Positions 5,357-27,117 of a stretch of DNA of 49,064 nucleotides are shown piece after piece. The position numbers and the translations under genes were made by a program. Numbering within the stretch: the stretch's first letter is position 1; every line of letters starts with the position of its first letter. The stretch covers positions 1-49,064 of the forward strand of contig WRJK01000008.1 of assembly GCA_009782285.1 (NCBI GenBank). Reading direction: 5' to 3'. The notes beneath the pieces were generated by a model that saw nothing but the letters and a program-made list of their open reading frames with translations, ran no database searches and was not told the DNA's origin. This DNA comes from Clostridiales bacterium (lineage in GTDB: Bacteria > Bacillota > Clostridia > Peptostreptococcales > Anaerovoracaceae).

Positions 5357-6529
5357 TTAGGCAGGCGTTCCGCTTGCGAAAGCCTTCTCAAGCAGGCCCA
5401 GGTAGTCCTCTTCGCTGACGTCGCGGCAATTGTCTGGCGTCGAGCCATTGACGAACGACGCCTCTGCCAGCCGGCCAAAATCGGCGCGGTCAACTCCAGG
5501 CACGTCTTTCAGCTGCGGGATGCCGATATCGTGAGCAAGCCGGCGCAGTTCCGCTACCAGCGCCGCAGATGCCGCCAGATCGTCGAGCCCCTCCACGGGC
5601 AGGCCGCATATTCTGGCTGCTTCGGCATGCTTGGCAGGGTTTGCCGGCACGTTGAATTCCGTCACAATGGGCAAAAATATGGAATTGGCCACCCCGTGCG
5701 GCGTGTCGTACAATCCCCCCAGCGCTTCTGCCAAGCAATGCACCGCTGCAACGTCTGCATGGGAAAAGGCCACGCCAGCCATTAGGGAGCCCAGCATCAT
5801 CTCGTCCCGGGCCTTTTTTGTCCCGTTTACCGCCGCTTCGCGCAGGTTCGGAAAGATGCGCCTCATCGCCTCTCTTGCCCACGCGTCCGAAAAGGGCGAC
5901 GCAGCTTTGCAGGTAAACGCTTCGATTGCGTGCACGAAAGCATCCATGCCGGTTGAGGCAGCAATCGCCGGCGGCAGGGAATAAGTAACCTGCGGATCGA
6001 CAATCGCCAGCCTTGGCGCCATTCTTATGTCCTTTATCGTCATTTTGAATTTGCGGCCAGTGTCAGTAATCACAGCAGAACGAGTCACTTCCGAGCCGGT
6101 GCCGGCTGTCGTCGGCACTGTGACCAGCGGAGTTACGGCGTTTTGCACTTTGCCGCGCCCTTCGTACTGCGCAAGCCGCCCTTCGTGGGTGTGCAGCATG
6201 GCTATTGCCTTGGCGGCGTCAAGCACTGAGCCGCCGCCCACGGCCAGGACAATGTCAGCGGCAAACTCCCTTATCAGCTCGCCTCCGGCTTCGCAGTCGG
6301 CGTCTTTCGGGTTGGGCTGGACCCGGTCGAAAAGCTCTGTTTCATATCCGTTTGATTTCAAACCGTCCAAGACAGGCTCGACAATTCCGGCCTGCATCAA
6401 GCCCGGGTCGGTCACTAGGAACACCCGCTTTCCTTCGACAGTGTTTTTTATCATTGAAGCTGCTTCGCATGCGATGCCGGCTTGAAACTCCACTTGCGTT
6501 GGCAAGGAAAAACTGTAACGCTCAAACAT
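5357..6529 (-). CDS. iron-containing (group III) alcohol dehydrogenase
   Basis: GGGSVLDAAKAIA NAD-binding motif and a conserved His cluster (HAIEAF, HCLAEALGG, TPHGVANS) typical of Fe-ADH/lactaldehyde reductase/1,3-propanediol dehydrogenase. Sits 20 nt upstream of 3951..5336 on the same strand. Confidence 0.85.
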   Translation of the reverse strand: MFERYSFSLPTQVEFQAGIACEAASMIKNTVEGKRVFLVTDPGLMQAGIVEPVLDGLKSNGYETELFDRVQPNPKDADCEAGGELIREFAADIVLAVGGGSVLDAAKAIAMLHTHEGRLAQYEGRGKVQNAVTPLVTVPTTAGTGSEVTRSAVITDTGRKFKMTIKDIRMAPRLAIVDPQVTYSLPPAIAASTGMDAFVHAIEAFTCKAASPFSDAWAREAMRRIFPNLREAAVNGTKKARDEMMLGSLMAGVAFSHADVAAVHCLAEALGGLYDTPHGVANSIFLPIVTEFNVPANPAKHAEAARICGLPVEGLDDLAASAALVAELRRLAHDIGIPQLKDVPGVDRADFGRLAEASFVNGSTPDNCRDVSEEDYLGLLEKAFASGTPA

Positions 6530-6723
6530 GTCATTTTCACCTTCCTTATCTCAATATGATTTTTGAATATTCACATATAGCGTATCACATGCGTTGAGAA
6601 GATTCAATGCAAATTTTTCGCTTTTTCAACGAAAATACAAAAATAAGGGGTTGCTGTGTGGTATAATAAGCTATTGTGTTGCTAAAACCGAGCAAAGCAA
6701 TCGGTGTAAGGAGGAAATCAAAA

Positions 6724-7482
6724 ATGGGCAACCTGAAGACGAAATTGAAGCAGAACGATTTGATAATTGGCACTTGGATTACAATTGCCAGCACCGCCGT
6801 CGCTGAAATACTGTGCCAAGCAGGCTTTGACTGGGTTGCGATTGACATGGAGCATTCGCCAATATCGTTTGCTGAAGCCCAAGAGCTGATAAGGACAATC
6901 GATCTTTGCGGGAAAGCGCCTGCGGTCAGGGTTGGCGAAAACAACGAGTACCAGATAAAGAACGTTCTTGACGCCGGCGCACGGGCGATCGTCGTGCCTA
7001 TGGTGAACAGCAAGGAAGAAGCGGAGGCGGCAGTCCGTGCAGTCAAATACCCTCCGGCAGGCAAGCGGGGCGTGGGGCTCGGCAGAGCGCAGAAGTACGG
7101 TTTTGGATTTGACGAGTACAGGGCTTGGAATGAACGGGAAAGCGTGGTTGTTGTTCAAATCGAGCATATAGACGCTGTACGCAACTTGGAGGGCATACTG
7201 GAGGTTGAGGGCATTGACGCAACTTTTGTCGGCCCCTACGACCTTTCAGGGTCGCTGGGCCAGCCCGGAAATTTCCACATGCCTGAATTCAAACAGGCGC
7301 TTGCAGAATACGAAACGCTCTCCAAGAAGCACAAAATGCCCATGGGGTACCATGTCGGATCACCGGATGCAAAGCTGGCGGAAAGCAAGGCAGCGTCGGG
7401 CTACAGGCTGTTGACAGTAAGCTCGGACGCCATGTTCATGGGGCAGAAATGCAGGGAAACGCTTGCAGGGATGCTATATTGA
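6724..7482 (+). CDS. HpcH/HpaI family 2-keto-3-deoxy-acid aldolase
   Basis: IGTWITIASTAVAEILCQAGFDWVAIDMEHSP...AVRVGENNEYQIKNVLDAGARAIVVPMVNSKEEAE matches the HpcH/HpaI aldolase fold. Start chosen at ATG 6724 after AGGAGGAAATCAAAA; the ORF track gives 6676. Confidence 0.8.
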   Translation: MGNLKTKLKQNDLIIGTWITIASTAVAEILCQAGFDWVAIDMEHSPISFAEAQELIRTIDLCGKAPAVRVGENNEYQIKNVLDAGARAIVVPMVNSKEEAEAAVRAVKYPPAGKRGVGLGRAQKYGFGFDEYRAWNERESVVVVQIEHIDAVRNLEGILEVEGIDATFVGPYDLSGSLGQPGNFHMPEFKQALAEYETLSKKHKMPMGYHVGSPDAKLAESKAASGYRLLTVSSDAMFMGQKCRETLAGMLY

Positions 7483-7499
7483 GAGCGGAGGGGATTGAA

Positions 7500-8045
7500 A
7501 TGGAATCAAGGAACATATTGCTGAGAAATACGCGTTTTGACGATTTTATACACTTTGCCGAATGGGAAAAGCAAAAACAGGTCACGGACTTTTTGAGCAT
7601 CGAAGAAGGCAGGTCGTATGAGGAGATTGTCAGGGAATCAATACTGCGGGAGTCGGACCCGTCCAAGCTTCAGTTCACAATCGTCCTGAAAGAGGAGGGC
7701 GAGCCAATAGGGAGGGTGTACATCAGCAGGATCGACCGCGAAGCGGATTCGCTGGACATCACGAGGATTTACATTGCCGACATGAAGCACAGGGGGCGGG
7801 GCTTTGGCGAGGAGGCCATGCTGCTAATCCTTGAATACAGTTTCATGGGCCTTCACATGGAGCGGGTCACCCTTGACCACTACACGGGGAATTCGGTCGC
7901 ATCGTCGCTTTACCTGAAATTGGGGTTCCAGTACGAAGGCGTGGCAAGGAACGCATGCAAAAAGGACGGAAAGTACTACGACCTTAATCTTATGTCCATG
8001 ACAAGGGCAGAGTACTTCGAAAAAGTCCATGTTAAGAAATACTAA
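7500..8045 (+). CDS. GNAT family N-acetyltransferase (RimJ/RimL-like)
   Basis: Acetyl-CoA binding pattern RGRGFGEEAMLLILEYSF and C-terminal YLKLGFQYEGVARN. Start ATG 7500 after GGAGGGG; the ORF track gives 7449. Confidence 0.7.
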   Translation: MESRNILLRNTRFDDFIHFAEWEKQKQVTDFLSIEEGRSYEEIVRESILRESDPSKLQFTIVLKEEGEPIGRVYISRIDREADSLDITRIYIADMKHRGRGFGEEAMLLILEYSFMGLHMERVTLDHYTGNSVASSLYLKLGFQYEGVARNACKKDGKYYDLNLMSMTRAEYFEKVHVKKY

Positions 8046-8231
8046 ACAGTAAAATTATTATGTAAATTTCGTAGTGCCGTATGTAGCATTAATAGCGATG
8101 TTTTCCTGCTTGTGCAGGAAATTTTGCGACTTGCAGGAAGGCTGCCTGCTTAAGTAACCAATAAAAATGCGTGTTAAAAACCAACTTGACAAGCAATGTA
8201 AAAAATAAATATGCAAAAAGTAAAAACCATA

Positions 8232-8260
8232 TTGACTGTTTCCCTCAGAAGACTTATAAT
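8232..8260 (+). promoter_or_regulatory. sigma-A type promoter for nrdDG (TTGACT-17 bp-TATAAT)
   Basis: Exact TTGACT at 8232-8237 and TATAAT at 8255-8260 with a 17 bp spacer, about 80 nt upstream of nrdD in an AT-rich intergenic region. Confidence 0.65.
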
Positions 8261-8271
8261 TTTTAATGCAC

Positions 8272-8287
8272 CTACAATATATAGTAT
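8272..8287. promoter_or_regulatory. candidate NrdR operator (NrdR box) overlapping the nrdD transcription start
   Basis: ctaCAATATATAGtat matches the core of the published NrdR-box palindrome acaCwAtATaTwGtgt at 10 of 10 core positions. It lies inside an imperfect palindrome CTACAATATATAG/TATATACATTGTAG. A second box is not clearly seen. Confidence 0.5.
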
Positions 8288-8340
8288 ATACATTGTAGGG
8301 CATTCAGGAAAAAGCACTATGATAAAACGTAGGGGGCATC

Positions 8341-10686
8341 ATGAAAGAAATAAAAGCTATAATCAAAAGAGACGGAAGGCGCACCAATTACAATATAGAC
8401 AAGATAGTAGGAGCCATTTTCAAAGCGGCCAAGGTTCTTGGAGGGACGGATATTGACACCGCAAGGTACCTTGCCAGGCAGGTCGAGGCGTACATCCTTG
8501 AAGTCATGCACAAAGACACGCCTACGGTGGAGGAGATACAGGACGCGGTCGAGAAAATCCTGATCGAAAACGGCCATGCTAGGACTGCAAAGGAGTTCAT
8601 CCTCTACCGTGCGGAGAGGACCCGCATTCGCGAGATGAACATGAGGCTCATGAAGATTTACGAGGACCTCACTTTCAAGGACGCAAGGGACAACGACATC
8701 AAGCGCGAAAACGCCAACATAGACGGCGACACGGCGATGGGCACGATGCTGAAGTACGGTTCGGAAGGTGCCAAGCAGTTCTACGAGATGTTCGTGTTGA
8801 AGCCGGAGCATTCGAAAGCCCACACCGAGGGCGACATCCACATACACGACATGGATTTCCTGACATTGACGACCACATGCTGCCAGATAGACATAGAAAA
8901 GCTGTTTAAAGGCGGTTTTTCGACCGGCCACGGGTTCCTCCGCGAGCCGAACGACATACAGAGCTACACCGCCCTCGCCTGCATAGCGATACAGTCCAAC
9001 CAGAACGACCAGCACGGCGGCCAGAGCATACCGAACTTCGACTACGGCATGGCAGCCGGCGTGAGGAAGACGTACAAGAAGCTGTACCGCACCAACCTTG
9101 GCAAATTGATGAACATGCTCTACGATGTCGAAGACGGCGTTGAAAAGGCGAAGGATATCGCAGACAAGCTGGAAAAGGAGAAGGGCCTTTGCCCGGCTAT
9201 GGGGTGCGGGAGCGGCTACTGCCAAGAAGAAGCGGAGCTGCTAAAAGAGTTCGTCAACGAAAAGGACATAGAAAAACTCCAAGCGGGGGCAAGGAAATAC
9301 GCCGACCAGGAGATAAGGAGGGCTACGTACCAAGCGATGGAAGCCTTCGTCCACAACCTGAACACCATGCATTCCCGCGCCGGCGCACAGATACCGTTTT
9401 CATCGATCAACTACGGGACGGACACGTCGCCCGAGGGCAGGCTGGTGATCGAAAACATCCTGCTTGCCACGGAGGCGGGACTTGGCAACGGGGAAACCGC
9501 AATTTTCCCCATACACATTTTCAAGGTCAAGGAAGGCGTGACATTCAACCCGGAAGACCCGAACTACGACCTGTTCAAGCTGGCATGCAGGGTTTCAGCC
9601 AAGAGGCTGTACCCGAACTTCTCGTTCATCGACGCGCCTTACAACCTGAAATTCTACGTTCCGGGGGACGTGGACACGGAGGTCGCCTACATGGGGTGCA
9701 GGACGAGGGTCATAGCCAACGTCCACGACGCGGATAGGCAAGTTGTCGGCGGCCGGGGGAACCTGAGCTTTACGTCGATAAACCTGCCGCGTATAGCGAT
9801 TAACGCCAACGGCAACACCGATTTGTTCTTCGACGAGCTGGACAGGAAGATCACGCTGGTGATCGACCAGCTTCTGGAAAGGTACGAGATACAGGCGTCG
9901 AAAAAAGTCAAAAACTTCCCGTTCCTGATGGGCCAGGGGATTTGGATGGATGCGGACAAACTGGGGCCCGAGGATTCGGTTGGCGAGATTTTGAAGCACG
10001 GGACTTTGACGATGGGCTTCATAGGCCTAGCAGAATGCCTCAAATGCCTCATAGGGAGCCACCACGGGGAAACCCAGGAGGCTCAGAACCTAGGGCTCAA
10101 CATCATAGGGTACATGAGGAAAAGGCTTGACGAAGCCGCTGCGGAAAAGGGGTTTAATTTCACCTTGATTGCAACTCCGGCTGAAGGGCTTGCCGGGAGG
10201 TTCGTCCGGATTGACAAGAAGAAGTACGGAACCATTGATGGCGTGACCGACAAGGAGTACTACACCAATTCCTTCCACATACCTGTATACTACAATATTT
10301 CCGCTTTCGAAAAGATAAGGCTGGAGGCGCCTTACCACGCATTGACCAACGCGGGGCACATTACCTACGTTGAGCTTGACGGCGACCCCTGCAAAAATCT
10401 CGACGCCTTTGAGAAAATCGTCCGGTTCATGAAGGAGTCTGGGGTGGGCTACGGCTCGATAAACCATCCGGTGGACAGGGACCCCGTTTGCGGCTACACG
10501 GGCGTCATCGACAACGAATGCCCGTCCTGCCACAGGAAAGAGGAGGACGACGGCATCAAGTTCGAGAGGATCAGGAGGATAACGGGCTATCTTGTGGGCA
10601 CTGTGGACCGTTTCAACAACGCAAAGAGGTACGAGGAGAAGGACAGGGTGAAGCACACGGTTGCGCTGGAGACGGAAGCGATATGA
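8341..10686 (+). CDS. nrdD: anaerobic ribonucleoside-triphosphate reductase (class III RNR)
   Basis: N-terminal ATP-cone (MKEIKAIIKRDGRRTNYNIDKIV), C-terminal Zn-ribbon CPSCH and glycyl-radical motif RRITGYLVGTVDRFNNAK; 781 aa. Confidence 0.9.
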   Translation: MKEIKAIIKRDGRRTNYNIDKIVGAIFKAAKVLGGTDIDTARYLARQVEAYILEVMHKDTPTVEEIQDAVEKILIENGHARTAKEFILYRAERTRIREMNMRLMKIYEDLTFKDARDNDIKRENANIDGDTAMGTMLKYGSEGAKQFYEMFVLKPEHSKAHTEGDIHIHDMDFLTLTTTCCQIDIEKLFKGGFSTGHGFLREPNDIQSYTALACIAIQSNQNDQHGGQSIPNFDYGMAAGVRKTYKKLYRTNLGKLMNMLYDVEDGVEKAKDIADKLEKEKGLCPAMGCGSGYCQEEAELLKEFVNEKDIEKLQAGARKYADQEIRRATYQAMEAFVHNLNTMHSRAGAQIPFSSINYGTDTSPEGRLVIENILLATEAGLGNGETAIFPIHIFKVKEGVTFNPEDPNYDLFKLACRVSAKRLYPNFSFIDAPYNLKFYVPGDVDTEVAYMGCRTRVIANVHDADRQVVGGRGNLSFTSINLPRIAINANGNTDLFFDELDRKITLVIDQLLERYEIQASKKVKNFPFLMGQGIWMDADKLGPEDSVGEILKHGTLTMGFIGLAECLKCLIGSHHGETQEAQNLGLNIIGYMRKRLDEAAAEKGFNFTLIATPAEGLAGRFVRIDKKKYGTIDGVTDKEYYTNSFHIPVYYNISAFEKIRLEAPYHALTNAGHITYVELDGDPCKNLDAFEKIVRFMKESGVGYGSINHPVDRDPVCGYTGVIDNECPSCHRKEEDDGIKFERIRRITGYLVGTVDRFNNAKRYEEKDRVKHTVALETEAI

Positions 10687-11204
10687 GCGCAAAGCCTGGC
10701 ATCATAAGGGTTGCGGGCTTAGTCCGGGAGTCCATCGTCGACGGACCCGGCATAAGGTTTGTCGTGTTCGCTCAGGGCTGCCCTCATAGGTGTGAAGGCT
10801 GCCACAACGAGGCTGCCCTTGATTTTTCCGGCGGCTATGAACTGGAAACAGGGAAAATCATGCTTGAGATCGAAAAGAACCCGCTGCTCTCCGGGGTCAC
10901 CTTCAGCGGCGGGGAGCCCTTCTGCCAGCCGGAAGGGTTTTTGCGTCTTGCACGGAAACTGAAAGAGAAAAACACCCACATCATTTCCTATTCGGGGTAC
11001 TCCTTTGAGGATCTCGAGGCGCTGGCTGAACAGGATGAGGACGTCAAAGAACTGCTGGGCAGGATTGACATACTGATAGACGGGCGGTTCGCCATCGAAG
11101 AGCGGGACTTGGCCCTCCAGTTCAAAGGGAGCGCGAACCAGCGGTACATCGACATGAACGCCACTAGGGAGAGCGGGGGGCTGGTGGTGCTGGACAGTTT
11201 GTAG
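10683..11204 (+). CDS. nrdG: anaerobic ribonucleotide reductase activating protein (radical SAM)
   Basis: MSAKPGIIRVAGLVRESIVDGPGIRFVVFAQGCPHRCEGCHN carries the CxxxCxxC-type cluster. ATG 10683 overlaps the nrdD stop (ATATGA). The ORF track start 10488 lies inside nrdD and was rejected. Confidence 0.85.
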   Translation: MSAKPGIIRVAGLVRESIVDGPGIRFVVFAQGCPHRCEGCHNEAALDFSGGYELETGKIMLEIEKNPLLSGVTFSGGEPFCQPEGFLRLARKLKEKNTHIISYSGYSFEDLEALAEQDEDVKELLGRIDILIDGRFAIEERDLALQFKGSANQRYIDMNATRESGGLVVLDSL

Positions 11205-11208
11205 AGAA

Positions 11209-11406
11209 TTATACCACAGTACGGCTGTTCTCGCCTGATTTAACCTGATCACCGCAGACAGGCGTAATCCCATGCTGTTTTAGCATGGGTTCTGTTTGTG
11301 CCTTGATATGCGCTGTTAATTCCGAAGGCGACATATTTTTCGTTTCCTCAAAGAGCGATATGCGGATTGCATTTAAGTCTTTTTCAATCGTGTTTGGGCT
11401 CTTCAT
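11209..11406 (-). CDS. small hypothetical protein (65 aa), possibly ribbon-helix-helix-like
   Basis: Strong RBS (GGAGGT, 8 nt spacer) upstream of ATG at 11406. Predicted beta strand IRISL followed by helices. However, the C-terminal part overlaps a perfect 8 bp hairpin (11268-11290) that could instead be the nrdDG terminator. Confidence 0.4.
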   Translation of the reverse strand: MKSPNTIEKDLNAIRISLFEETKNMSPSELTAHIKAQTEPMLKQHGITPVCGDQVKSGENSRTVV

Positions 11407-11757
11407 TTTCCAATACCTCCATTGGCGTACATATTATTACAGTCTTATAACCCTCCCGCAAACAGAAGCACAGGCGATATGAGTACTGTCAAATCTATAT
11501 TTTGCCGGAATGATGCCCTCATGTACATTATATGCTGAAAGTATAATCAAATCAATACAGAACAGCAAATCTTAAAACCCAATTATCCTGCTCTTTTCAA
11601 GCACTGACTGCCGCGAAAATTTGATGCAAAATATTGTAAAACAGGCAGATGCATGATATCATAAAATGTCAAGCAATTAGAGGCAATCTATCGAAAATTC
11701 ATGTAGCGATAATGGTAATGTAAAGTGATTTGCTGAACAGAGCAGGAAGGTTGAGAC

Positions 11758-12468
11758 ATGAAAACATCCAGTATGATATTTGCGGCTGCTTCAGCATTAG
11801 CGATCCTGATTTTTTCAGGATGCGGACAGGTTGGTGAACAAACTCCAAGCGACAGCCGAGCTTCAAGCGACAGCATTTGTCTAATCAAGAATTATACTAC
11901 CGAAATACCGAGGACTATGTGGCCGGTGTTGGACGAAGGAAGATTCATTAGCTTTGAAATAGTTTCCGAAGGGGATGACGATGCCTATACTATTGGGTAT
12001 TCGACGATTATTAACGGCGTCAAAACCGACCATGCTTTGTTTTCAGACGACCGGCAACAATTGGAACGATGGGAGGGGACGGTCGGGTATTCATTTTTGA
12101 TGACAGGAAAGTTCTTTCGTGGCGATGTAACGCTGAACTATGGGAGTTATAAGGATTCGGCAACTAAAAGCAGAAATGCATTAATGCTTGAAATACCAGG
12201 GCGGCAGGATTGGAAAGGCGTGTCTTTCGCGACAAGAATGGAGGGGTTTGGCAGTGAACTGAACAAAGGAGAAGGCTGTATCCTTGCTTATTACTGGGGT
12301 TGGTTCAGTGATGAGGAACCCCCTCTCGATGACGGCGCCAGCACAAGGCTTTTTGAATATAAGACAGTTGACGAGTTTGCACAAGACCCTGACATACGAA
12401 GGTTATCCTTTTGTTTGGTTTATTACATCGAAAACAGTATGGAGGTCGGTCATGAAAGACAATTATGA
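11758..12468 (+). CDS. lipoprotein of unknown function
   Basis: Signal peptide with lipobox MIFAAASALAILIFSGC. No recognisable catalytic motifs. Lower GC than the core genes. Confidence 0.6.
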   Translation: MKTSSMIFAAASALAILIFSGCGQVGEQTPSDSRASSDSICLIKNYTTEIPRTMWPVLDEGRFISFEIVSEGDDDAYTIGYSTIINGVKTDHALFSDDRQQLERWEGTVGYSFLMTGKFFRGDVTLNYGSYKDSATKSRNALMLEIPGRQDWKGVSFATRMEGFGSELNKGEGCILAYYWGWFSDEEPPLDDGASTRLFEYKTVDEFAQDPDIRRLSFCLVYYIENSMEVGHERQL

Positions 12469-12565
12469 TTTTTCAACAGAGGACAGCAATGAAGAAAAAT
12501 CTAATGAAAAATATGCGAACGTGGTGCGGGAGAGTTTACAGGAATATAAGGTCAACACGCCATAA
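12452..12565 (+). CDS. small acidic ORF (37 aa), doubtful
   Basis: ATG 12452 preceded by GGAGG, overlaps the lipoprotein stop. Contains copy A of the 44 bp direct repeat. No homology recognised. Confidence 0.2.
   Translation: MKDNYDFSTEDSNEEKSNEKYANVVRESLQEYKVNTP
12486..12529. repeat. 44 bp direct repeat, copy A
   Basis: gcaatgaagaaaaatctaatgaaaaatatgcgaacgtggtgcgg, about 40 of 44 identical to copy B at 13178..13221. The two copies bracket the toxin-remnant/antitoxin pair. Confidence 0.7.
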
Positions 12566-12584
12566 AAGCAGCAAATTCTGCGAT

Positions 12585-12731
12585 TTACGATTGAAATAGA
12601 TCCGAATGAGTACCCGTGCGCGAAGCGGTTAGCACGATGCTTTTTCCGTCAATAAAATAAACGAGAAGCCAATCTGGAAGGATATGACATTCCCGAAACC
12701 CAGCATAGTCACCCGTTAATGCGTGGTCATG
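12585..12731 (-). pseudogene. YafQ/RelE-family toxin remnant (C-terminal half only, no start codon)
   Basis: Minus-strand translation HALTGDYAGFRECHILPDWLLVYFIDGKSIVLTASRTGTHSDLFQS* aligns with the C-terminal half of E. coli YafQ (HPLQGSWKGYRDAHVEPDWILIYKLTDKLLRFERTGTHAALFG). The frame runs without a Met into the antitoxin stop, so about 45 N-terminal residues are missing. Confidence 0.6.
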
Positions 12732-12745
12732 GTGTTTCGACACGC

Positions 12746-13039
12746 TCAATCCTCCATATCCTCTAAGCCTAATTCCTCAACCATCTCCTTGACAGAAGCA
12801 TAGGACTTTGTTTGTATCCTACCGCTTGCAATATCCCGCGCTTCCTTCATTGCAGCTAATGTCTCATTGTTGTATTTCGGCAAAGTCATATCGAAAGGCA
12901 ACCCGCCGACAATTATTACCTTATGCAAAAAAATATTTACAGCGTCTGCTACGGTTAGCCCGAAATGAGAAAAGATTCCGTCAACAGTTGATTTCACATC
13001 AGGTTCAACACGAATATTTATGTTTGCTGTTTTAGCCAT
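12746..13039 (-). CDS. DinJ/RelB-family type II antitoxin
   Basis: MAKTANINIRVEPDVKSTVDGIFSHFGLTVADAVNIFLHKVIIVGGLPFDM matches DinJ (MAANAFVRARIDEDLKNQAADVLAGMGLTISDLVRITLTKVAREKALPFDL). Looks full length at 97 aa. Confidence 0.8.
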   Translation of the reverse strand: MAKTANINIRVEPDVKSTVDGIFSHFGLTVADAVNIFLHKVIIVGGLPFDMTLPKYNNETLAAMKEARDIASGRIQTKSYASVKEMVEELGLEDMED

Positions 13040-13177
13040 ATCAAATCACCTCATTTTTAGTATGCACTATTTCGGAAGCGAATGCAATACAAACGCAACC
13101 ATTTTGGAAATATATTTTCACAGTTTTTCAAAAAACGATTAACCTCCGGTGCCGTCCAAAGCTCAAGTCGAGCTGTG

Positions 13178-13221
13178 GCAATGAAGAAAATTCTTATGAA
13201 AAAAATGCGAACGTGGTCGGC
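13178..13221. repeat. 44 bp direct repeat, copy B
   Basis: gcaatgaagaaaattcttatgaaaaaaatgcgaacgtggtcggc. It sits in a different reading frame from copy A, so the duplication is at DNA level rather than a conserved protein. Confidence 0.7.
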
Positions 13222-13342
13222 TTTTTGCGTTGTCATAGTTTTGGTCTCTCGTAGCTATGGTCTCCAGACGGAGGATTTTCATGTGAGTATTCATGTTTTT
13301 TCAATTAAAGTGAATTGTTTTGAATTGTATCTTGAATACTAT

Positions 13343-13370
13343 TGACTTATAAAATCAAGGTAAGTATAAT
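13343..13370 (+). promoter_or_regulatory. consensus-like promoter upstream of the NTPase gene
   Basis: TTGACT (13343-13348), 16 bp spacer, TATAAT (13365-13370) inside a strongly AT-rich leader. Confidence 0.5.
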
Positions 13371-13441
13371 ATCTATTATCTATGTATATTGTAATATTAA
13401 AGTTTGATGAGCAATGCTTTTTGAAACGGGGGATAATTCAA

Positions 13442-15298
13442 ATGGATAATGATCGGAAATTCATTCAAAATGGCAAATATTTGATTGAAGAGGCTAATCT
13501 AGATACAATGCAGAGCATCGACAACTATGAAGATTTTTCATTACAGTACATAGGTAGCCCTGATGCAAAGAGAGAATGGGACAAAAATCCAGAACTTACA
13601 GGTGATATGTTTATTCACACAAGAGCATATCACGCTTTCAAGGATGAAGACAATTTAATTTTGCTTGGAAGAACAGGCACTGGAAAAACGGCGATACTTC
13701 GGTGTCTCGAATGGGAAGTTAGACATAATTCTTCAGATTTTGGAATGGCATATAACATCGCAGTTATGATTGAAGCAGAACAATTCCTAAAAGTTTTAGC
13801 ATTGTATGAAATGTTAGATACAAATAGCACTGCGGCGAACCTTCAAATTTCTGAAGCATTACGGCGGATAGTTTATCTGTCCATCATGGAAAAAATACTT
13901 GATAGCTGTGAAAAGCCAACTCAATATCAGGCGATTTATCGTTTCTTAACATCAGCACACGAGTTGAGAGGGAATTTGAAATACACTAAAAGCCAACAAG
14001 CCAGGGATAAAGCTAGTATTTTTGCGCAAGCAGAGATACTCGGTACTGCGACAGAATTTGGTACAATTTTAAAAGATGTGCAGACTGTCACACGTCTTTT
14101 CGATATTTTGTACGCGACAAATTATGAAGCCGCAAGAGAGGAATGTAAAGGATACCTCAACAATAAAAAAGTGCTTGTTCTCATTGATACATTTGAAACA
14201 TATGATTTGTCGAATGCGAAAATGATACAAATAATACGAAACCTTCTTGAGGTTTGTTTTGAGTTTTATAATAATCCAACAAAAAATATATTCGTCAAAA
14301 TTGCCTTACCAATTGAGATTTACAATAGGGTTCTTTATGGGCTGCCACCAAAAAAATCTTCAAACACTGTCGTTATAAGATGGACAAATAGAGAACTGCT
14401 TGCCATGGTTGCATTGAGAATTGTGGCAGGCTATCAGCAAGGTAAGCTGAAAGGAGTGCTCGAAGATCAGGGGAGGGAAATTCTTTTTGATTATTGTGAG
14501 CAGTTTTCATTAAGTGACTTTTACGCAGATAGAGAGAAAGGGATCAGTGTGGCATATGAAAACGCTCGAAATCTATTACAAAACATATTACCAAAAGAAT
14601 GTGTAACAAGATGTGCTTATTCATGTGATGCAATACTCTATTGCATGAAACACACATTGAAAAAACCAAGAGAGCTAATGAAGATGTTTGATGGTTTTAT
14701 TTCTCAAATTATTAAAAACAATAACCGCGATTACTATAAAATAAATAACGGGGAAAACATACGAGATACTGTTCATGCCATGGAAGAATATATGATCAGA
14801 TCTGCATTAAGCGTGTATGAAGATTCTTACCGAGGATTGGGAATAGCATGTGACGAGTTTTTTACTGACGCCGTATTTGTTTTTGAAAAAAACACACCAA
14901 TAGTAAATAAGCTCAAGGCAGCTATCGTTAAGGCAAAAGAAGCAAATTGGAGACACTTAACGCCGGCAGAACAGCATACTGTTGAGTCATTGTTGGATGA
15001 GACAACTTTTATATCAGTCTTAATGGAAAGTGGCTTGATTGGAGAGATTAACTCAAAAAAAATCCAAGTTAACGAAAAATTCTTCGACGCGAATGAACCT
15101 ACATGCACTATTATTGCTGATTTTGAATTTAAAATAACAAGACCAAACAATTATCAGTTATTTGCAGGTAGACAATATGTTATACATCCAATGTGTTATG
15201 AATACTATTCGTGTAAAGTGGACCGGAATACATTTGTTTATCTCGAAAAAGGAAAACGCGAGGCACCCATTTATCACTCCCAGTTGATAGATCTCTAA
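13442..15298 (+). CDS. P-loop NTPase of unassigned family with a Cys-rich C-terminal region; candidate defence or abortive-infection ATPase
   Basis: Walker A LLGRTGTGKTAIL preceded by a beta strand. Candidate Walker B KKVLVLIDTFETYD about 170 aa later. C-terminal CVTRCAYSCDAILYCMKH and HPMCYEYYSCK Cys clusters. Very AT-rich codon usage, unlike its flanks. Start taken at ATG 13442 with GGGGGA RBS; the ORF track starts at 13382 (near-leaderless alternative). Confidence 0.75.
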   Translation: MDNDRKFIQNGKYLIEEANLDTMQSIDNYEDFSLQYIGSPDAKREWDKNPELTGDMFIHTRAYHAFKDEDNLILLGRTGTGKTAILRCLEWEVRHNSSDFGMAYNIAVMIEAEQFLKVLALYEMLDTNSTAANLQISEALRRIVYLSIMEKILDSCEKPTQYQAIYRFLTSAHELRGNLKYTKSQQARDKASIFAQAEILGTATEFGTILKDVQTVTRLFDILYATNYEAAREECKGYLNNKKVLVLIDTFETYDLSNAKMIQIIRNLLEVCFEFYNNPTKNIFVKIALPIEIYNRVLYGLPPKKSSNTVVIRWTNRELLAMVALRIVAGYQQGKLKGVLEDQGREILFDYCEQFSLSDFYADREKGISVAYENARNLLQNILPKECVTRCAYSCDAILYCMKHTLKKPRELMKMFDGFISQIIKNNNRDYYKINNGENIRDTVHAMEEYMIRSALSVYEDSYRGLGIACDEFFTDAVFVFEKNTPIVNKLKAAIVKAKEANWRHLTPAEQHTVESLLDETTFISVLMESGLIGEINSKKIQVNEKFFDANEPTCTIIADFEFKITRPNNYQLFAGRQYVIHPMCYEYYSCKVDRNTFVYLEKGKREAPIYHSQLIDL

Positions 15299-15315
15299 AG
15301 ATATCTAAAAAAACA

Positions 15316-15346
15316 CTTGAACTCCCACCCCTTCTTATGGTACAAT
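15316..15346 (+). promoter_or_regulatory. rpmB promoter with extended -10
   Basis: TTGAAC (15316-15321) and TGgTACAAT (15338-15346). Confidence 0.5.
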
Positions 15347-15422
15347 ATTTATCGTGCTTGAATCGACACGAAATAAGCAATTACAGCGAAAGAGCGATTT
15401 GATAGAAGGAGGTGCGGCAGGC

Positions 15423-15617
15423 ATGTCAAGAAGGTGCGAGGTGTGCGGGAAAGGGCAGGTTTCAGGGAACAACGTGTCCCATTCCAACAGGCATACGAGA
15501 AGGAAGTGGAATGCGAACATCCAGACGGTCAAGGTTACCGAGAACGGGACTACGAGAAGGGTAAAGATGTGCACGAGGTGCATACGCTCGGGCAGGAAGG
15601 TTAGCGGTGCCAACTAA
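15423..15617 (+). CDS. rpmB: 50S ribosomal protein L28
   Basis: MSRRCEVCGKGQVSGNNVSHSNRHTRRKWNANIQTVKV...RVKMCTRCIRSGRKV is canonical L28. ATG 15423 after GGAGG; the ORF track start 15354 was rejected. Confidence 0.9.
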   Translation: MSRRCEVCGKGQVSGNNVSHSNRHTRRKWNANIQTVKVTENGTTRRVKMCTRCIRSGRKVSGAN

Positions 15618-15709
15618 TGACGGATGAGGCCAGGTAATCAATCTTGGTCTTATTTTTTATTGTGTCAGAAGCCACGTTTTTATTCTTAAGCGGAAGAGGG
15701 GCGGCAGTT

Positions 15710-16102
15710 TTGATATACAGGGTGGAGACTCCCACTGGAAGCATATCTTTTTCAAAAAACATCATAGGCAGGATCGTGCTTGAGGCTGTCCTGCAGTTTG
15801 GCGGCAAGGTGATGGTTTCAAACCACAAAGGGAAAACCGTTGGGCTGTCGCAGAAGCGCGGAGGCCTCGACGCCATTGGCACCATGGACATAACCATGGG
15901 AGCAAAGGGCCTTGACCTTCGGATTTACGTCGTGATACGTTTTGGCACCAGCATAGGCATGGTGACGGACAGGCTCATCGAAGGCATTTACATGCGCACC
16001 AAGGAACTGACAGGGCTTGCGCCGAACAGCGTTGCAATCGTGGTCACAGGGATGATTTCAAAGCAGCAGATGGCGCGAAGGAACATCGAGGTAATAAAAT
16101 AA
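15710..16102 (+). CDS. Asp23/Gls24 (alkaline shock protein, DUF322) family protein
   Basis: GSISFSKNIIGRIVLEAVLQFGG...LAPNSVAIVVTGM pattern. TTG start at 15710 after AAGAGGGG chosen over the in-frame upstream ATG 15644. Same position as yloU in Bacillus (rpmB-asp23-recG). Confidence 0.7.
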   Translation: MIYRVETPTGSISFSKNIIGRIVLEAVLQFGGKVMVSNHKGKTVGLSQKRGGLDAIGTMDITMGAKGLDLRIYVVIRFGTSIGMVTDRLIEGIYMRTKELTGLAPNSVAIVVTGMISKQQMARRNIEVIK

Positions 16103-24711: not shown

Positions 24712-27117
24712 ATGGCTGAAAAAAAGAAAAAAAGCAATAATACCGGCAAAACCGACAAAGCTGTCGGCAAGAAAAAGGCCGGTGGGACTGTCGCGTCCCG
24801 TGTGAAGGACGAAATCTGGGCCATCGTCATCATGGCTCTGGGTGCCTTCCTCATCATCGCGCTTCAGACCAGCGCCGCCGGGAAGCTTGGCGGCGCCATA
24901 GCCACGCTGTTTTTCGGGGTCTTTGGGTTTATGGCTTATGTCCTGCCGTACTATTTGATACTGTACGGGATGCTGCTGTTCGCCAAAAAGGCTGCCCACG
25001 TCGGTGGGCGCTCAGCTGCATTCCTCGCGCTGATTTTCTTGATGCTTACAATCATCAACTCGAGCAGGTTCATCGACCCAGAGGGCTTGAATTACAGCTT
25101 TGCCGGCATTTTCAACGCTGGCGTGAAGCTTTCAGGCGGAGGGGTTTTCGGCACCTATGCGGGTAACGTTTTAGTGAAACTGACAGGCAAATCAGGCCTT
25201 TTCATATTCTCCTTCGTTGTCATCCTGGCATCGCTGCTTCTGGTGATCAACACGCCCATATCCCAATTCTTGGACAGCCTTAAGCTGAAGAGGGCCGAAA
25301 GGAGGGAAAAGAAGGCGGGCGAGGCATGGGAAGAACCGGCGGAGGGCTCGGCGGCTGCCGCAAAGCCGCCTGCCGCAAAGCCGCCTGCCGCCCCGCCGCT
25401 TGCCGGGGCGGGGCGCCCTGAGCAGCCTCTGCCGGCGGAGCCGGAAGAGGCTGCGGCAGAAAACGGCGCTCCAAGGAAAAGCCCTTTCGACGAGCTTTAC
25501 GGCGGAATGTCTGTGAACCAGATGAAAATAATGGATTACATGAGCGACGACAACCTGTTTGAAAAAACGGAAGCAGCCAACAGAGCCGTTGAAGAATTCA
25601 GTAAAGCCGAAGAGGCTGCGGAGGCAAAACCCCCGATCGCCGGCGGCGCAAAGCTCAGCAAGCCGGCAACAGCGAAGTACCAGCTGCCGTCCATTGAGTT
25701 CCTGAACAAGGGCATCGACGGGAGCAGGCTCAACTCAGACGCGGGCCTCATGGCGAAGGCGGGCAAGCTGGAAGAGACGCTAAGCAATTTTCACGTCGAC
25801 GCCAAAGTGCTCAGGGTCACCCAAGGCCCGGCGGTAACAAGGTACGAAATCCAGCCAAACACAGGCGTCAAGGTGAACAGCATCGTAAGGCTGGCAGACG
25901 ACATTGCGCTGAACCTCGAAGCAAGGAGCATCAGGATCGAGGCACCCATCCCCGGCAAGGCTGCCGTAGGCATCGAAGTCGAAAACGACAAGGTGACGAT
26001 GGTCACGCTCAGGGACATACTGGCGTCAAAGGAATTCAAGGACTCGAAGTCGAAGATCGCTTTTGCCATCGGCAAGGACATCTCAGGCAACTCCATAGTC
26101 GCCGACCTGAAAGAGATGCCCCACATGCTGATTGCCGGCGCCACGGGCTCGGGCAAGAGCGTTTGCATCAACAGCATCATCATAAGCATCCTGTACAAGG
26201 CGCTTCCCGAGGAAGTCAAGCTGGTCCTGATCGACCCGAAAGTCGTCGAGCTGAGGAACTACAACGGCATCCCGCACCTCTTGATCCCTGTTGTGACGGA
26301 GCCGCCGAAAGCTGCTGCGGCACTGGGCTGGGCCGTTTCCGAGATGACCGACAGGTACAAGAAATTTGCTGAAGAAGGCGTGCGCGACCTGGATTCATAC
26401 AACGGCTCAGTCAGGAAACGAAACGAAAACGACATGGTGCTCCCTCAGATTGTCATCATTATCGACGAGCTCGCGGACCTTATGATGGCTGCGCCGTCCC
26501 AAGTCGAAGAATCCATATGCAGGCTGGCGCAGATGGCGCGGGCGGCGGGCATGCACTTGATCGTCGCCACCCAAAGGCCTTCCGTAGACATAATAACCGG
26601 GGTTATAAAAGCCAACATCCCGTCAAGGATAGCCTTCGCCGTTTCATCCCAGTTCGATTCCAGGACGATTCTGGACATGTCCGGGGCAGAGAAGCTCGTT
26701 GGCAAAGGCGACATGCTGTTCAACCCGATTGGCATCCCAAAACCTGTCAGGGTGCAGGGCACGTTCATATCCGACAGCGAAGTGCACAGGGTCATCGAAT
26801 TCGTGAAATCCCAGTCCAAGGAGGTCGAGTACGCGGACGACGTGATCCACACGATAGAAAAAGGGGACGCAGAGGGCAGCCAAGGCGGCGACGAGCTCCT
26901 GGACGAAGCGATAGAAACAGTCGTAAAGACCAAGCAGGCATCGGCTTCAGGGCTGCAAAGGCGCTTCCGCATAGGGTACAACAGAGCTGCCAGGATAATT
27001 GAAATAATGGAAGCGAAGGGGATTATAAGCAGGGCCGACGGGAGCAAGCCCAGGCAGGTGCTGATGACCGAGGAAGAGCTTTACGAGGCCGGAAACGAGA
27101 AGAAAGGGCTTGAATAG
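24712..27117 (+). CDS. ftsK: DNA translocase FtsK/SpoIIIE
   Basis: N-terminal polytopic membrane domain, Pro/Ala-rich linker ([17 protein letters not shown]), motor domain with Walker [12 protein letters not shown] and Walker [11 protein letters not shown], and a C-terminal winged-helix gamma domain. ATG 24712. Confidence 0.9.
25356..25392. repeat. 15 bp x ~2.5 tandem repeat inside the ftsK linker (AAKPP)
   Basis: tgccgcaaagccgcc tgccgcaaagccgcc tgccgcc. Confidence 0.8.

Follow-up and report, generated by a model that had tools for sequence, protein, structure and literature searches.

A divergent clostridial ATPase of the Sll1717 family in an AT-rich island, a candidate stand-alone defense protein

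We analyzed a 49,064-nucleotide (nt) stretch of DNA from a Clostridiales bacterium (assembly GCA_009782285.1, contig WRJK01000008.1, positions 1 to 49,064 of the forward strand), referred to as the window, and a gene on its + strand that encodes a P-loop ATPase of the Sll1717 family (13442..15298, stop included). The coding sequence was defined from its open reading frame (ORF), a match to the NCBIfam model NF047389, and an AlphaFold2 model. We consider it somewhat probable, arguing from its relatives and their surroundings, that the product is a horizontally acquired, stand-alone, single-gene defense ATPase of the Sll1717/DS-41 family directed against phage or mobile elements. The ORF runs without interruption from 13382 to 15298 and would give 638 amino acids (aa), and an internal ATG at 13442 gives 618 aa, in keeping with the 618 to 638 aa that an earlier note on this DNA had stated. 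We prefer the start at 13442 because a predicted ribosome-binding site read from the sequence, GGGGGA (13428..13433, +), lies 8 nt 5' of it, the upstream ATG is just 12 nt past the −10 hexamer, the N termini of homologues align with the internal start, and the NCBI record MCL1808474.1 ("hypothetical protein") also begins there. The promoter of its own that had been claimed for the gene is present as a sigma-70-type match, TTGACT-17 nt-TATAAT (13342..13370, +), which agrees with the consensus at 11 of 12 positions, is the top match within 11000 to 15800, and is predicted from the consensus match only. At 90% identity the ATPase forms a cluster of three members, a sparsely sampled lineage.

The gene lies in an AT-rich island of about 4.1 kb (11205..15340) between nrdG, which ends at 11204, and rpmB, delimited from GC content in 200-nt steps and from Pfam matches of the flanking genes. 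GC content falls from 0.54 to 0.59 outside to 0.30 to 0.47 within the island and is back at 0.55 at 15400; by gene, it is 0.566 for nrdG, 0.359 for the ATPase gene, and 0.538 for rpmB. The ATPase gene falls 16.5 points short of the 0.524 measured for the remainder of the window, which bears out the extreme AT bias first noticed in it. Besides the ATPase gene, the island holds an ORF of 64 to 65 aa, a lipoprotein-like ORF, and a RelB/YafQ remnant. Pfam identified the remnant as an intact relB antitoxin gene (12746 to 13039) next to a 5'-truncated yafQ toxin gene (12585 to 12749), together 12585..13039 on the − strand. The RelB match is full length (2.3e-14), and the YafQ_toxin match (2.1e-20) is limited to profile positions 41 to 88 of 88. 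The toxin, and not the antitoxin, is thus the disabled partner, and since a truncated YafQ stands beside an intact RelB, the description of the ATPase as the neighbor of a decayed toxin-antitoxin module was correct. We found no integrase, transposase, or terminal repeats around the ATPase gene in the window and no structured RNA or tRNA integration site within the island. For an empty-site comparison at nrdG-rpmB, an exact look-up of the L28 protein gave no match.

The predicted protein matches NF047389 ("P-loop ATPase, Sll1717 family") with 122 bits (E, 3.6e-35; cutoff, 75) in a single stretch that places residues 37 to 560 on profile positions 1 to 441 of 454. All 44 aligned clade homologues match the same model near full length (E of ≤1e-5; best, 9.5e-44), with scores above or near the threshold. 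At 122 bits, this clostridial clade is a peripheral branch of the family relative to the core members, in Proteobacteria and Cyanobacteria, that gave the model its name. Pfam PF24389 (ORC-CDC6-like) was matched marginally (28.0 bits against a gathering threshold of 27) and only over residues 55 to 224 on profile positions 18 to 175 of 571; the same match is precomputed for several homologues. A word-indexed search returned 59 full-length homologues with 28 to 37% identity, and an exhaustive search by profile through 1.84 billion representatives returned 1,385 at an E of ≤1e-3, 259 of them at an E of ≤1e-30. The Sll1717 family is rare and patchy but real. Homologues in named genomes are in gut and rumen metagenome-assembled genomes (MAGs) of Clostridia (Sporobacter, Lachnospiraceae, and Oscillospiraceae), and a metagenome scan added just six further loci. 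With 59 full-length homologues, 1,385 family representatives, and the NF047389 match, the protein is not the orphan it had been taken for. Other assignments made beforehand were confirmed. The protein is not an ABC ATPase, with no match to ABC_tran, SMC_N, AAA_15, or AAA_21 in the Pfam scan, and the models of the ABC/SMC-type defense ATPases GajA and PtuA reached E values of only 0.003 to 0.016, over the P-loop. It is not a KAP ATPase, since PF07693 gave no match at an E of ≤10. A profile check against Pfam and NCBIfam returned no housekeeping NTPase family above its cutoff. No solved relative was detectable by sequence, either with the single sequence or with a profile, which gave nothing below an E of 0.02, and a literature search on Sll1717, PF24389, and NF047389 found nothing. 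Sll1717, the Synechocystis protein after which the family is named, has reportedly been linked to a physiological (redox) phenotype.

The AlphaFold2 model of the protein is compact and confident (mean predicted local distance difference test [pLDDT], 81.6; predicted template modeling [TM] score [pTM], 0.86). We counted residue conservation in an alignment of 175 full-length family members, leaving out gapped sequences column by column. Ahead of the P-loop strand is an N-terminal motif, Y-[IL]-G-x2-D-A-x2-E-W ... F-[IL]-H-T (13544..13621, +), whose G38, A42, E45, W46, and F57 are invariant or nearly so in a homologue alignment (A1). The nucleotide-binding domain, predicted to be of the ORC/Cdc6-STAND type of AAA+ domains, extends over residues ~60 to 315 (13619..14386, +). 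Its Walker A motif LLGRTGTGKTA (residues 74 to 84; 13661..13693, +) follows the G-x4-G-K-[ST] pattern, and G76, G79, G81, and K82 are found in all nongapped sequences (167 to 168 of 168; 175 aligned). The model and alignment A1 show a variable helical insert of about 125 residues (residues 113 to 239; 13778..14158, +) between strand 2 and the Walker B strand, and residues 175 to 212 of it are predicted with low confidence; part of the insert has a pLDDT below 50. The ORC/Cdc6-STAND clade bears a helix-extension-helix insert at the corresponding position, after strand 2 (PMC12839542), and by this position the two may be equivalent. The Walker B strand, VLVLIDTFETYD (residues 244 to 255; 14171..14206, +), contains D249 (170 of 172 sequences), with Ser or Thr at position 250 in 159 of 172 and Y254 in 160. 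Of the expected hhhhD followed by an acidic residue, the Asp is present and the adjacent acidic residue is absent. K82 and D249 are 167 residues apart, which agrees with the earlier note's Walker A about 80 aa into the protein and Walker B about 170 aa later.

Past the Walker B strand, a conserved segment (14288..14419, +) comprises strand 4 (K286, P290, and E292), an LPxK motif (K304), strand 5 (W314), and the first lid helix (R326). Both E292 and W314 are found in all 172 nongapped sequences, R326 in 168, K286 in 165, and K304 in 163; the invariant Glu of the family, E292, thus comes after strand 4 rather than beside the Walker B Asp. A beta-hairpin and helix with C387, C401, and H404 lead into a T-L-K-K-P-R-E motif (14600..14674, +), in which P409 (172 of 172), R410 (171), T405 (167), and H404 (166) stand out. 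P290, P384, G531, G534, H582, and P583 are the other universal or nearly universal residues. The window protein retains every universally conserved nucleotide-site residue. Three nearly universal residues, R326, R410, and K304, may serve as sensor-2 or arginine-finger residues, and R410 of K-P-R-E-L is our candidate for the sensor-2 arginine, an assignment based on a presumed resemblance of K-P-R-E-L to the sensor-2 GDAR motif of Orc1/Cdc6. The C-terminal half consists of helical and winged-helix-like modules (14732..15295, +), including ESGLIG (15026 to 15043) and HPMCYEYYSC (15185 to 15214), and its winged-helix matches are weak.

In the model, the nucleotide-binding domain and helical lid superpose on members of the ORC/Cdc6-STAND family. 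The fold comparison figures were 12.8 for the N-terminal region of BrxC (9zll), 12.0 for archaeal SSO1545 (2fna), 11.6 for Cdc6, 11.4 for TnsC, 11.4 for PAB2304, 10 to 11 for ORC subunits and DnaA, and 9 to 10 for plant and animal NLRs and CED-4. Identity in these matches is 8 to 15%, and they are generic to the AAA+ initiator/STAND branch. By this modeled fold, the window protein is an AAA+ ATPase of the ORC/Cdc6-STAND type. Because the matches take in BrxC, Cdc6, TnsC, ORC, and NLRs, the previous failure to place the protein in AAA+ or STAND was wrong, and PF24389, just above its cutoff, points the same way.

BrxC/PglY, the BREX protein whose N-terminal ATPase is matched (9zll, 9zdx, and 9zn5), has 1,200 to 1,300 aa with extra domains and is 10% identical; unlike the window protein, it acts as one part of a six-gene system that also includes a methyltransferase and PglZ, and no BREX genes were found near the window gene or its homologues. 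The archaeal proteins SSO1545 (2fna) and PAB2304 (2qen), members of Pfam ATPase_2, are ~350 aa long without the C-terminal extension and Cys site, and neither shows significant sequence similarity to the window protein. In contrast to Orc1/Cdc6, the window protein has no acidic residue after the Walker B Asp and has the large insert past strand 2, and the context of its family is accessory and variable and is not linked to origins. The Avs and DUF4062(NIR)-STAND proteins have the classic order, with the NADase effector at the N terminus and the NTPase after it, an order also shown by P0164, a distant member of the family. Unlike Avs, the window protein has no N-terminal effector, only ~60 residues without a domain match before the ATPase domain, and the ~300 residues past its ATPase core are helical and winged-helix-like, with no match to TPR, WD40, or LRR repeats, which typically span ≥400 aa.

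The Cys-rich C terminus that the earlier note had emphasized is present exactly as described, in two patterns, C387-x3-C391-x3-C395-x5-C401-x2-H404 and H582-x2-C585-x5-C591. It is only in part a feature of the family. C391 and C395 are essentially private to the window protein; C387, C401, C585, and C591 are each shared by about half of the wider family, and H404 and H582 are nearly universal. The four shared cysteines tend to occur together: 65 sequences have the complete set, 70 lack it altogether, and 33 have partial sets, and hydrophobic residues are found where they are missing. Their presence or absence largely tracks clades, and these sequences are therefore not independent observations. 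From this pattern, the four most likely form an optional structural metal (Cys4) site that would tie the lid hairpin to the C-terminal strands. We considered and rejected a catalytic zinc cluster, for which two of the six cysteines are private and the other four are missing from about half of the family, with hydrophobic residues in their place; judged by conservation, the Cys site is unlikely to be a catalytic center.

The link to antiphage defense is DS-41 ("AAA2," WP_033812887.1), a single-gene, 502-aa E. coli protein from the DefensePredictor study published in Science in 2026. In that study, DS-41 was expressed from its native promoter on a low-copy plasmid, reduced the plating of several BASEL phages, and was counted as validated by the criterion of plating reduced at least 10-fold or smaller plaques; the supplement puts its protection at ~3.6 log (Bas63) and 2.3 log (Bas19), and the authors class it as a remote homologue of Avs1B (PMC13092281). 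The passages searched give no mechanism for DS-41 (PMC13092281). Searching with the portion of its sequence available in print brought up homologues with 45 to 87% identity, many named "P-loop ATPase, Sll1717 family" by NCBI and several with PF24389. We place the window protein and DS-41 in one curated family because of the NF047389 match on one side and the Sll1717 naming of DS-41 homologues on the other. Like the window protein, DS-41 is a single-gene P-loop ATPase in the range of ~500 to 600 aa with no recognizable effector domain, and the two have the motif order G-x-x-G-x-G-K-[ST], hhhhD, I-x-W...R, and [KS]-P-R-E-L; within the DS-41 clade, S-P-R-E-L is invariant as well, and some members of both clades carry PF24389. 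Unlike the window protein, DS-41 is ~115 residues shorter, chiefly past the PRE motif, has none of the four cysteines, comes from Proteobacteria and not from Clostridia, and is experimentally validated. A broad hidden Markov model (HMM) built from the 175 sequences detected 108 of 120 DS-41-clade proteins collinearly, at 21 to 28 bits, with no matches among reversed-sequence controls. The antiphage equivalog model NF053860 (DS41_1) matches 17 of the 44 clostridial clade members at an E of ≤1e-5 (best, 2.8e-12), and none of the 44 was shown to reach its cutoff of 370 bits. DS-41 and the clostridial clade are only remotely related.

A second link to immunity comes from extended relatives. In P0164 (724 aa), a DUF4062 domain (3.7e-19) at the N terminus is fused to the ATPase module; this protein scores 191 bits on the clade profile and matches the window protein in BLASTP at 7e-25 over 432 residues. 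Work from 2026 showed that DUF4062/NIR, which is enriched beside defense genes, acts in Swarozyc, Avs2, Vulcan, and Vesta as an NADase effector of a TIR-like kind. As in P0164, there are N-terminal extensions in P0138 and P0139 (~720 aa), P0123 (888 aa), and P0095 (615 aa). Beyond DUF4062, the extension types are a weak HSDR_N_2 restriction-endonuclease-like match (23 bits, below the cutoff), an unannotated 340-aa region, and a zinc ribbon. A PADLOC scan of P0164, P0138/P0139, P0123, and P0095 matched no system.

We compared the genomic contexts of the homologues. An all-versus-all comparison of 240 neighbors at 24 loci revealed no conserved partner gene; neighbors recur within single lineages only, apart from integrases. 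The upstream gene was considered as a partner and rejected, as the 245- to 262-aa genes of two homologue loci and the 236-aa ORF of the window are mutually unrelated. In 20 of 20 loci, the homologue is more AT rich than its flanks, by 10 points on average and 25.6 at most. Of the 93 neighbors examined by domain, six are integrases, and conjugation genes, PDC-S01, PDC-S15, and a SLOG domain are also represented. An integrase island that contains one homologue also encodes DUF4062, CYTH, and KAP NTPase proteins (PDC-S60 and PDC-S49), PbeC of the phosphorothioate-dependent Pbe system lies near another (L022; 1.6e-92), and a further homologue neighbors a protein bearing a CBASS-type endonuclease effector domain. 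In many cases, the homologues lie in mobile-element or defense-like contexts, with integrases, a prophage, Gabija, PbeC, and TIR and HerA-like proteins among their neighbors. A random gene lies within 5 kb of a known defense system at a null rate of 0.0153 (PMC13581612), and 2 of 19 independent contexts did so here (Gabija and Pbe; P = 0.034). When candidate systems and defense domains were added, the count rose to 6 of 19 (P of ~3e-7), under criteria looser than those of the null. These neighborhood statistics are suggestive of an association with defense and not conclusive.

Several of these loci are described individually. In an Oscillospiraceae MAG from goat caecum (L004), a complete Gabija system starts 326 bp downstream of the homologue on the same strand and is followed by an integrase; the homologue is at 5798-7492, GajA (2.8e-257) at 7818-10049, and GajB (6.6e-226) at 9998-11941. 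At another locus (L026, 8001-9830), the homologue is inside an SPbeta-like prophage with YomV, YomW, YonB, YonD, YonG, and YonO-type RNA-dependent RNA polymerase domains, on the strand opposite to the phage genes and two genes upstream of an IS605 OrfB/TnpB (Cas12f-like) gene. One homologue (L023, 10377-15355; L025, 7954-12932) is followed downstream by genes for a 912-aa HD protein (weakly dGTPase-like), a 297-aa protein, and an ATPase of the HerA/DUF87-like type (454 aa) with a further match to mad8, and one strain variant has a TIR protein upstream; this three-gene block resembles an uncharacterized defense operon. In a Coprococcus-like lineage (L018, L019, L031, and L032), the order is fixed as an RTX-like repeat protein, a 262-aa protein, the homologue, a 502-aa protein, and ClpB, and the 262- and 502-aa proteins, neither of which has a Pfam domain, are conserved alongside the homologue in that lineage only.

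The case for a defense ATPase is made by the family, the predicted AAA+ fold, the intact nucleotide-site residues, the lack of a partner gene, the foreign composition, the neighborhoods, and the NADase fusion in relatives; defense by the window protein itself is inferred because its remote relative DS-41 protects. The proposal in the earlier note of a stand-alone antiphage ATPase thus survives in part. It gains from membership in NF047389, the family of DS-41, from the absence of a partner, from foreign GC content in 20 of 20 loci, and from the mobile-element and defense neighborhoods, and it loses the orphan and non-AAA+/STAND status, along with the Cys clusters, which are no conserved functional hallmark.

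A number of results weigh against the defense interpretation. The window protein scores only 15.1 bits on NF053860 (E, 0.0088; cutoff, 370) over its N-terminal 160 residues, and judged by this score it is not an equivalog of DS-41. Aligning the two clade alignments with hhalign gave an E of 7.5e-4 and 25% probability over residues 309 to 481 only, and reciprocal clade HMMs (clostridial versus DS-41) gave less than 15 bits. A direct clade-to-clade homology with DS-41 was therefore set aside as weak; the two are bridged only by the curated NCBI models and the broad 175-sequence HMM. The authors of the DS-41 study caution that not every homologue of a defense protein is defensive (PMC13092281). 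A scan against PADLOC-DB v2 (2023) found no significant component, the best matches being PDC-M28C (2.1e-4) and mad8 (7.1e-4), both partial. A Walker B Asp followed by Thr or Ser instead of an acidic residue makes the ATPase chemistry atypical, and since Pfam and fold scans recognized no effector domain, the output step is conjecture. Some contexts look ordinary (a polysaccharide cluster at L030 and the stable clpB synteny of the Coprococcus-like lineage), the window itself has no known defense system adjacent, just the decayed toxin-antitoxin module, and with 19 contexts, the strict neighborhood statistic is weak and the looser count is not matched to its null. Lastly, tblastn against 50,697 phage and 72,556 plasmid records found no relatives, and there were none in IMG/VR. 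We also rejected a phage or plasmid origin of the gene; it has no sequence relatives in those collections, and its structural matches in BFVD have TM scores below 0.25.

Among other explanations, it is possible, though unlikely, that the protein is a STAND/ORC-like ATPase with a winged-helix DNA-binding output, that is, a nucleotide-gated regulator or nonimmune switch of the MalT type carried as accessory cargo. In its favor, the ATPase leads into a lid and winged-helix-like modules and an enzymatic effector is missing, and nondefense STAND clades are interspersed among defense clades (PMC13581612). The redox phenotype reportedly linked to Sll1717 would also fit a nonimmune role. However, regulators normally adjoin their targets, and no neighbor family recurs over independent loci; the foreign composition of all 20 loci, the experimentally defensive branch of the family, and the relative fused to an immune NADase also argue against it. 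A role in mobile-element maintenance, as an initiator or helicase loader (Orc1/Cdc6 or DnaA/DnaC-like) or a target-selection ATPase (TnsC/MuB/IstB-like), seems a little less likely still. Integrases, conjugation genes, and a prophage near homologues fit such a role, but no transposase, integrase, or replication partner is kept beside the gene, and in the window neither integrase, transposase, nor terminal repeats surround it. The homologue in the SPbeta-like prophage lies moron-like on the strand opposite to the phage modules, and the fold matches to initiators and TnsC are generic to the AAA+ initiator/STAND branch at their low identity.

We consider it very improbable that the gene is a passenger without function, brought in by an old insertion and now decaying as the truncated yafQ beside it has done. 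The truncated toxin gene and the repeat scar in the island, together with a sparsely sampled lineage of three members, are what this explanation would lead one to expect, but the ORF is intact over 618 codons with every universal family residue kept, is preceded by a near-consensus promoter match and a ribosome-binding site, and yields a model that is compact and confident. A housekeeping replication or repair NTPase in a conserved chromosomal context, to which the location between nrdDG and rpmB/recG and the ORC/Cdc6-like fold might point, is effectively refuted by a GC content well under that of the flanks, a different context in every independent lineage, a rare and patchy family (1,385 of 1.84 billion representatives), and the absence of any housekeeping-family profile above its cutoff.

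For a defense ATPase of this kind, we offer a mechanism at low confidence, with the DNA ligand, oligomerization, and output as its conjectural parts. At rest, the protein would be an ATP- or ADP-bound, nucleotide-gated switch. Its C-terminal winged-helix-type modules would sense a phage-derived ligand, most likely DNA, because the layout of ATPase, lid, and winged helix is Orc1/Cdc6-like. Binding of the ligand would drive nucleotide-dependent oligomerization, and the oligomer would stop phage replication directly or engage a host factor. More speculatively, and with little confidence, effector-less Sll1717 ATPases might work either by ATP-dependent loading on phage DNA as a decoy or roadblock initiator or through a novel catalytic site formed by H404, R410, H582, and E292. 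In the first case, Orc1/Cdc6-like loading at phage replication origins or intermediates may suffice with no enzymatic effector; in the second, the Cys4 site may be a clade-specific stabilizer of the catalytic site.

What is new here is a divergent clostridial member, with a longer C terminus and a clade-specific Cys4 site, of a family that is already catalogued and has one defensive branch; taken alone, this amounts to assignment to a family together with guilt by association, and not to a new kind of system. If the defense interpretation is true, a family whose protection was validated, in 2026, in E. coli alone extends to the Clostridia of gut and rumen, and phage defenses of anaerobic Clostridia are almost unstudied by experiment. 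The window protein would be a deeply divergent, compact representative with its own predicted promoter. Comparing branches that have only the ATPase, lid, and PRE-motif core in common would reveal the essential parts, which matters because neither branch has a recognizable effector domain and the searched passages on DS-41 describe no mechanism.

The lipoprotein-like ORF of the island (11758-12468, +; 236 aa; GC content, 0.45) has the N-terminal sequence ...LIFSGCGQ... and no Pfam match, and the ORF of 64 to 65 aa (11209-11406, −) has no Pfam match either. The single tRNA gene of the window, a tRNA-Arg with anticodon GCG (25314-25398, −), is distant from the island and is not its integration site. 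We found no insertion scars flanking the ATPase gene, and the sole notable repeat is the one around the toxin-antitoxin remnant. This is a 40-nt direct repeat (12486-12525 and 13178-13217), with copies identical at 37 of 40 positions and 692 nt apart, that flanks the RelB/truncated-YafQ module. Each copy lies within a small ORF encoding ..AMKK(N/I)LMK(N/K)MRTW.., and the arrangement looks like a duplication or an insertion scar around the toxin-antitoxin cassette.

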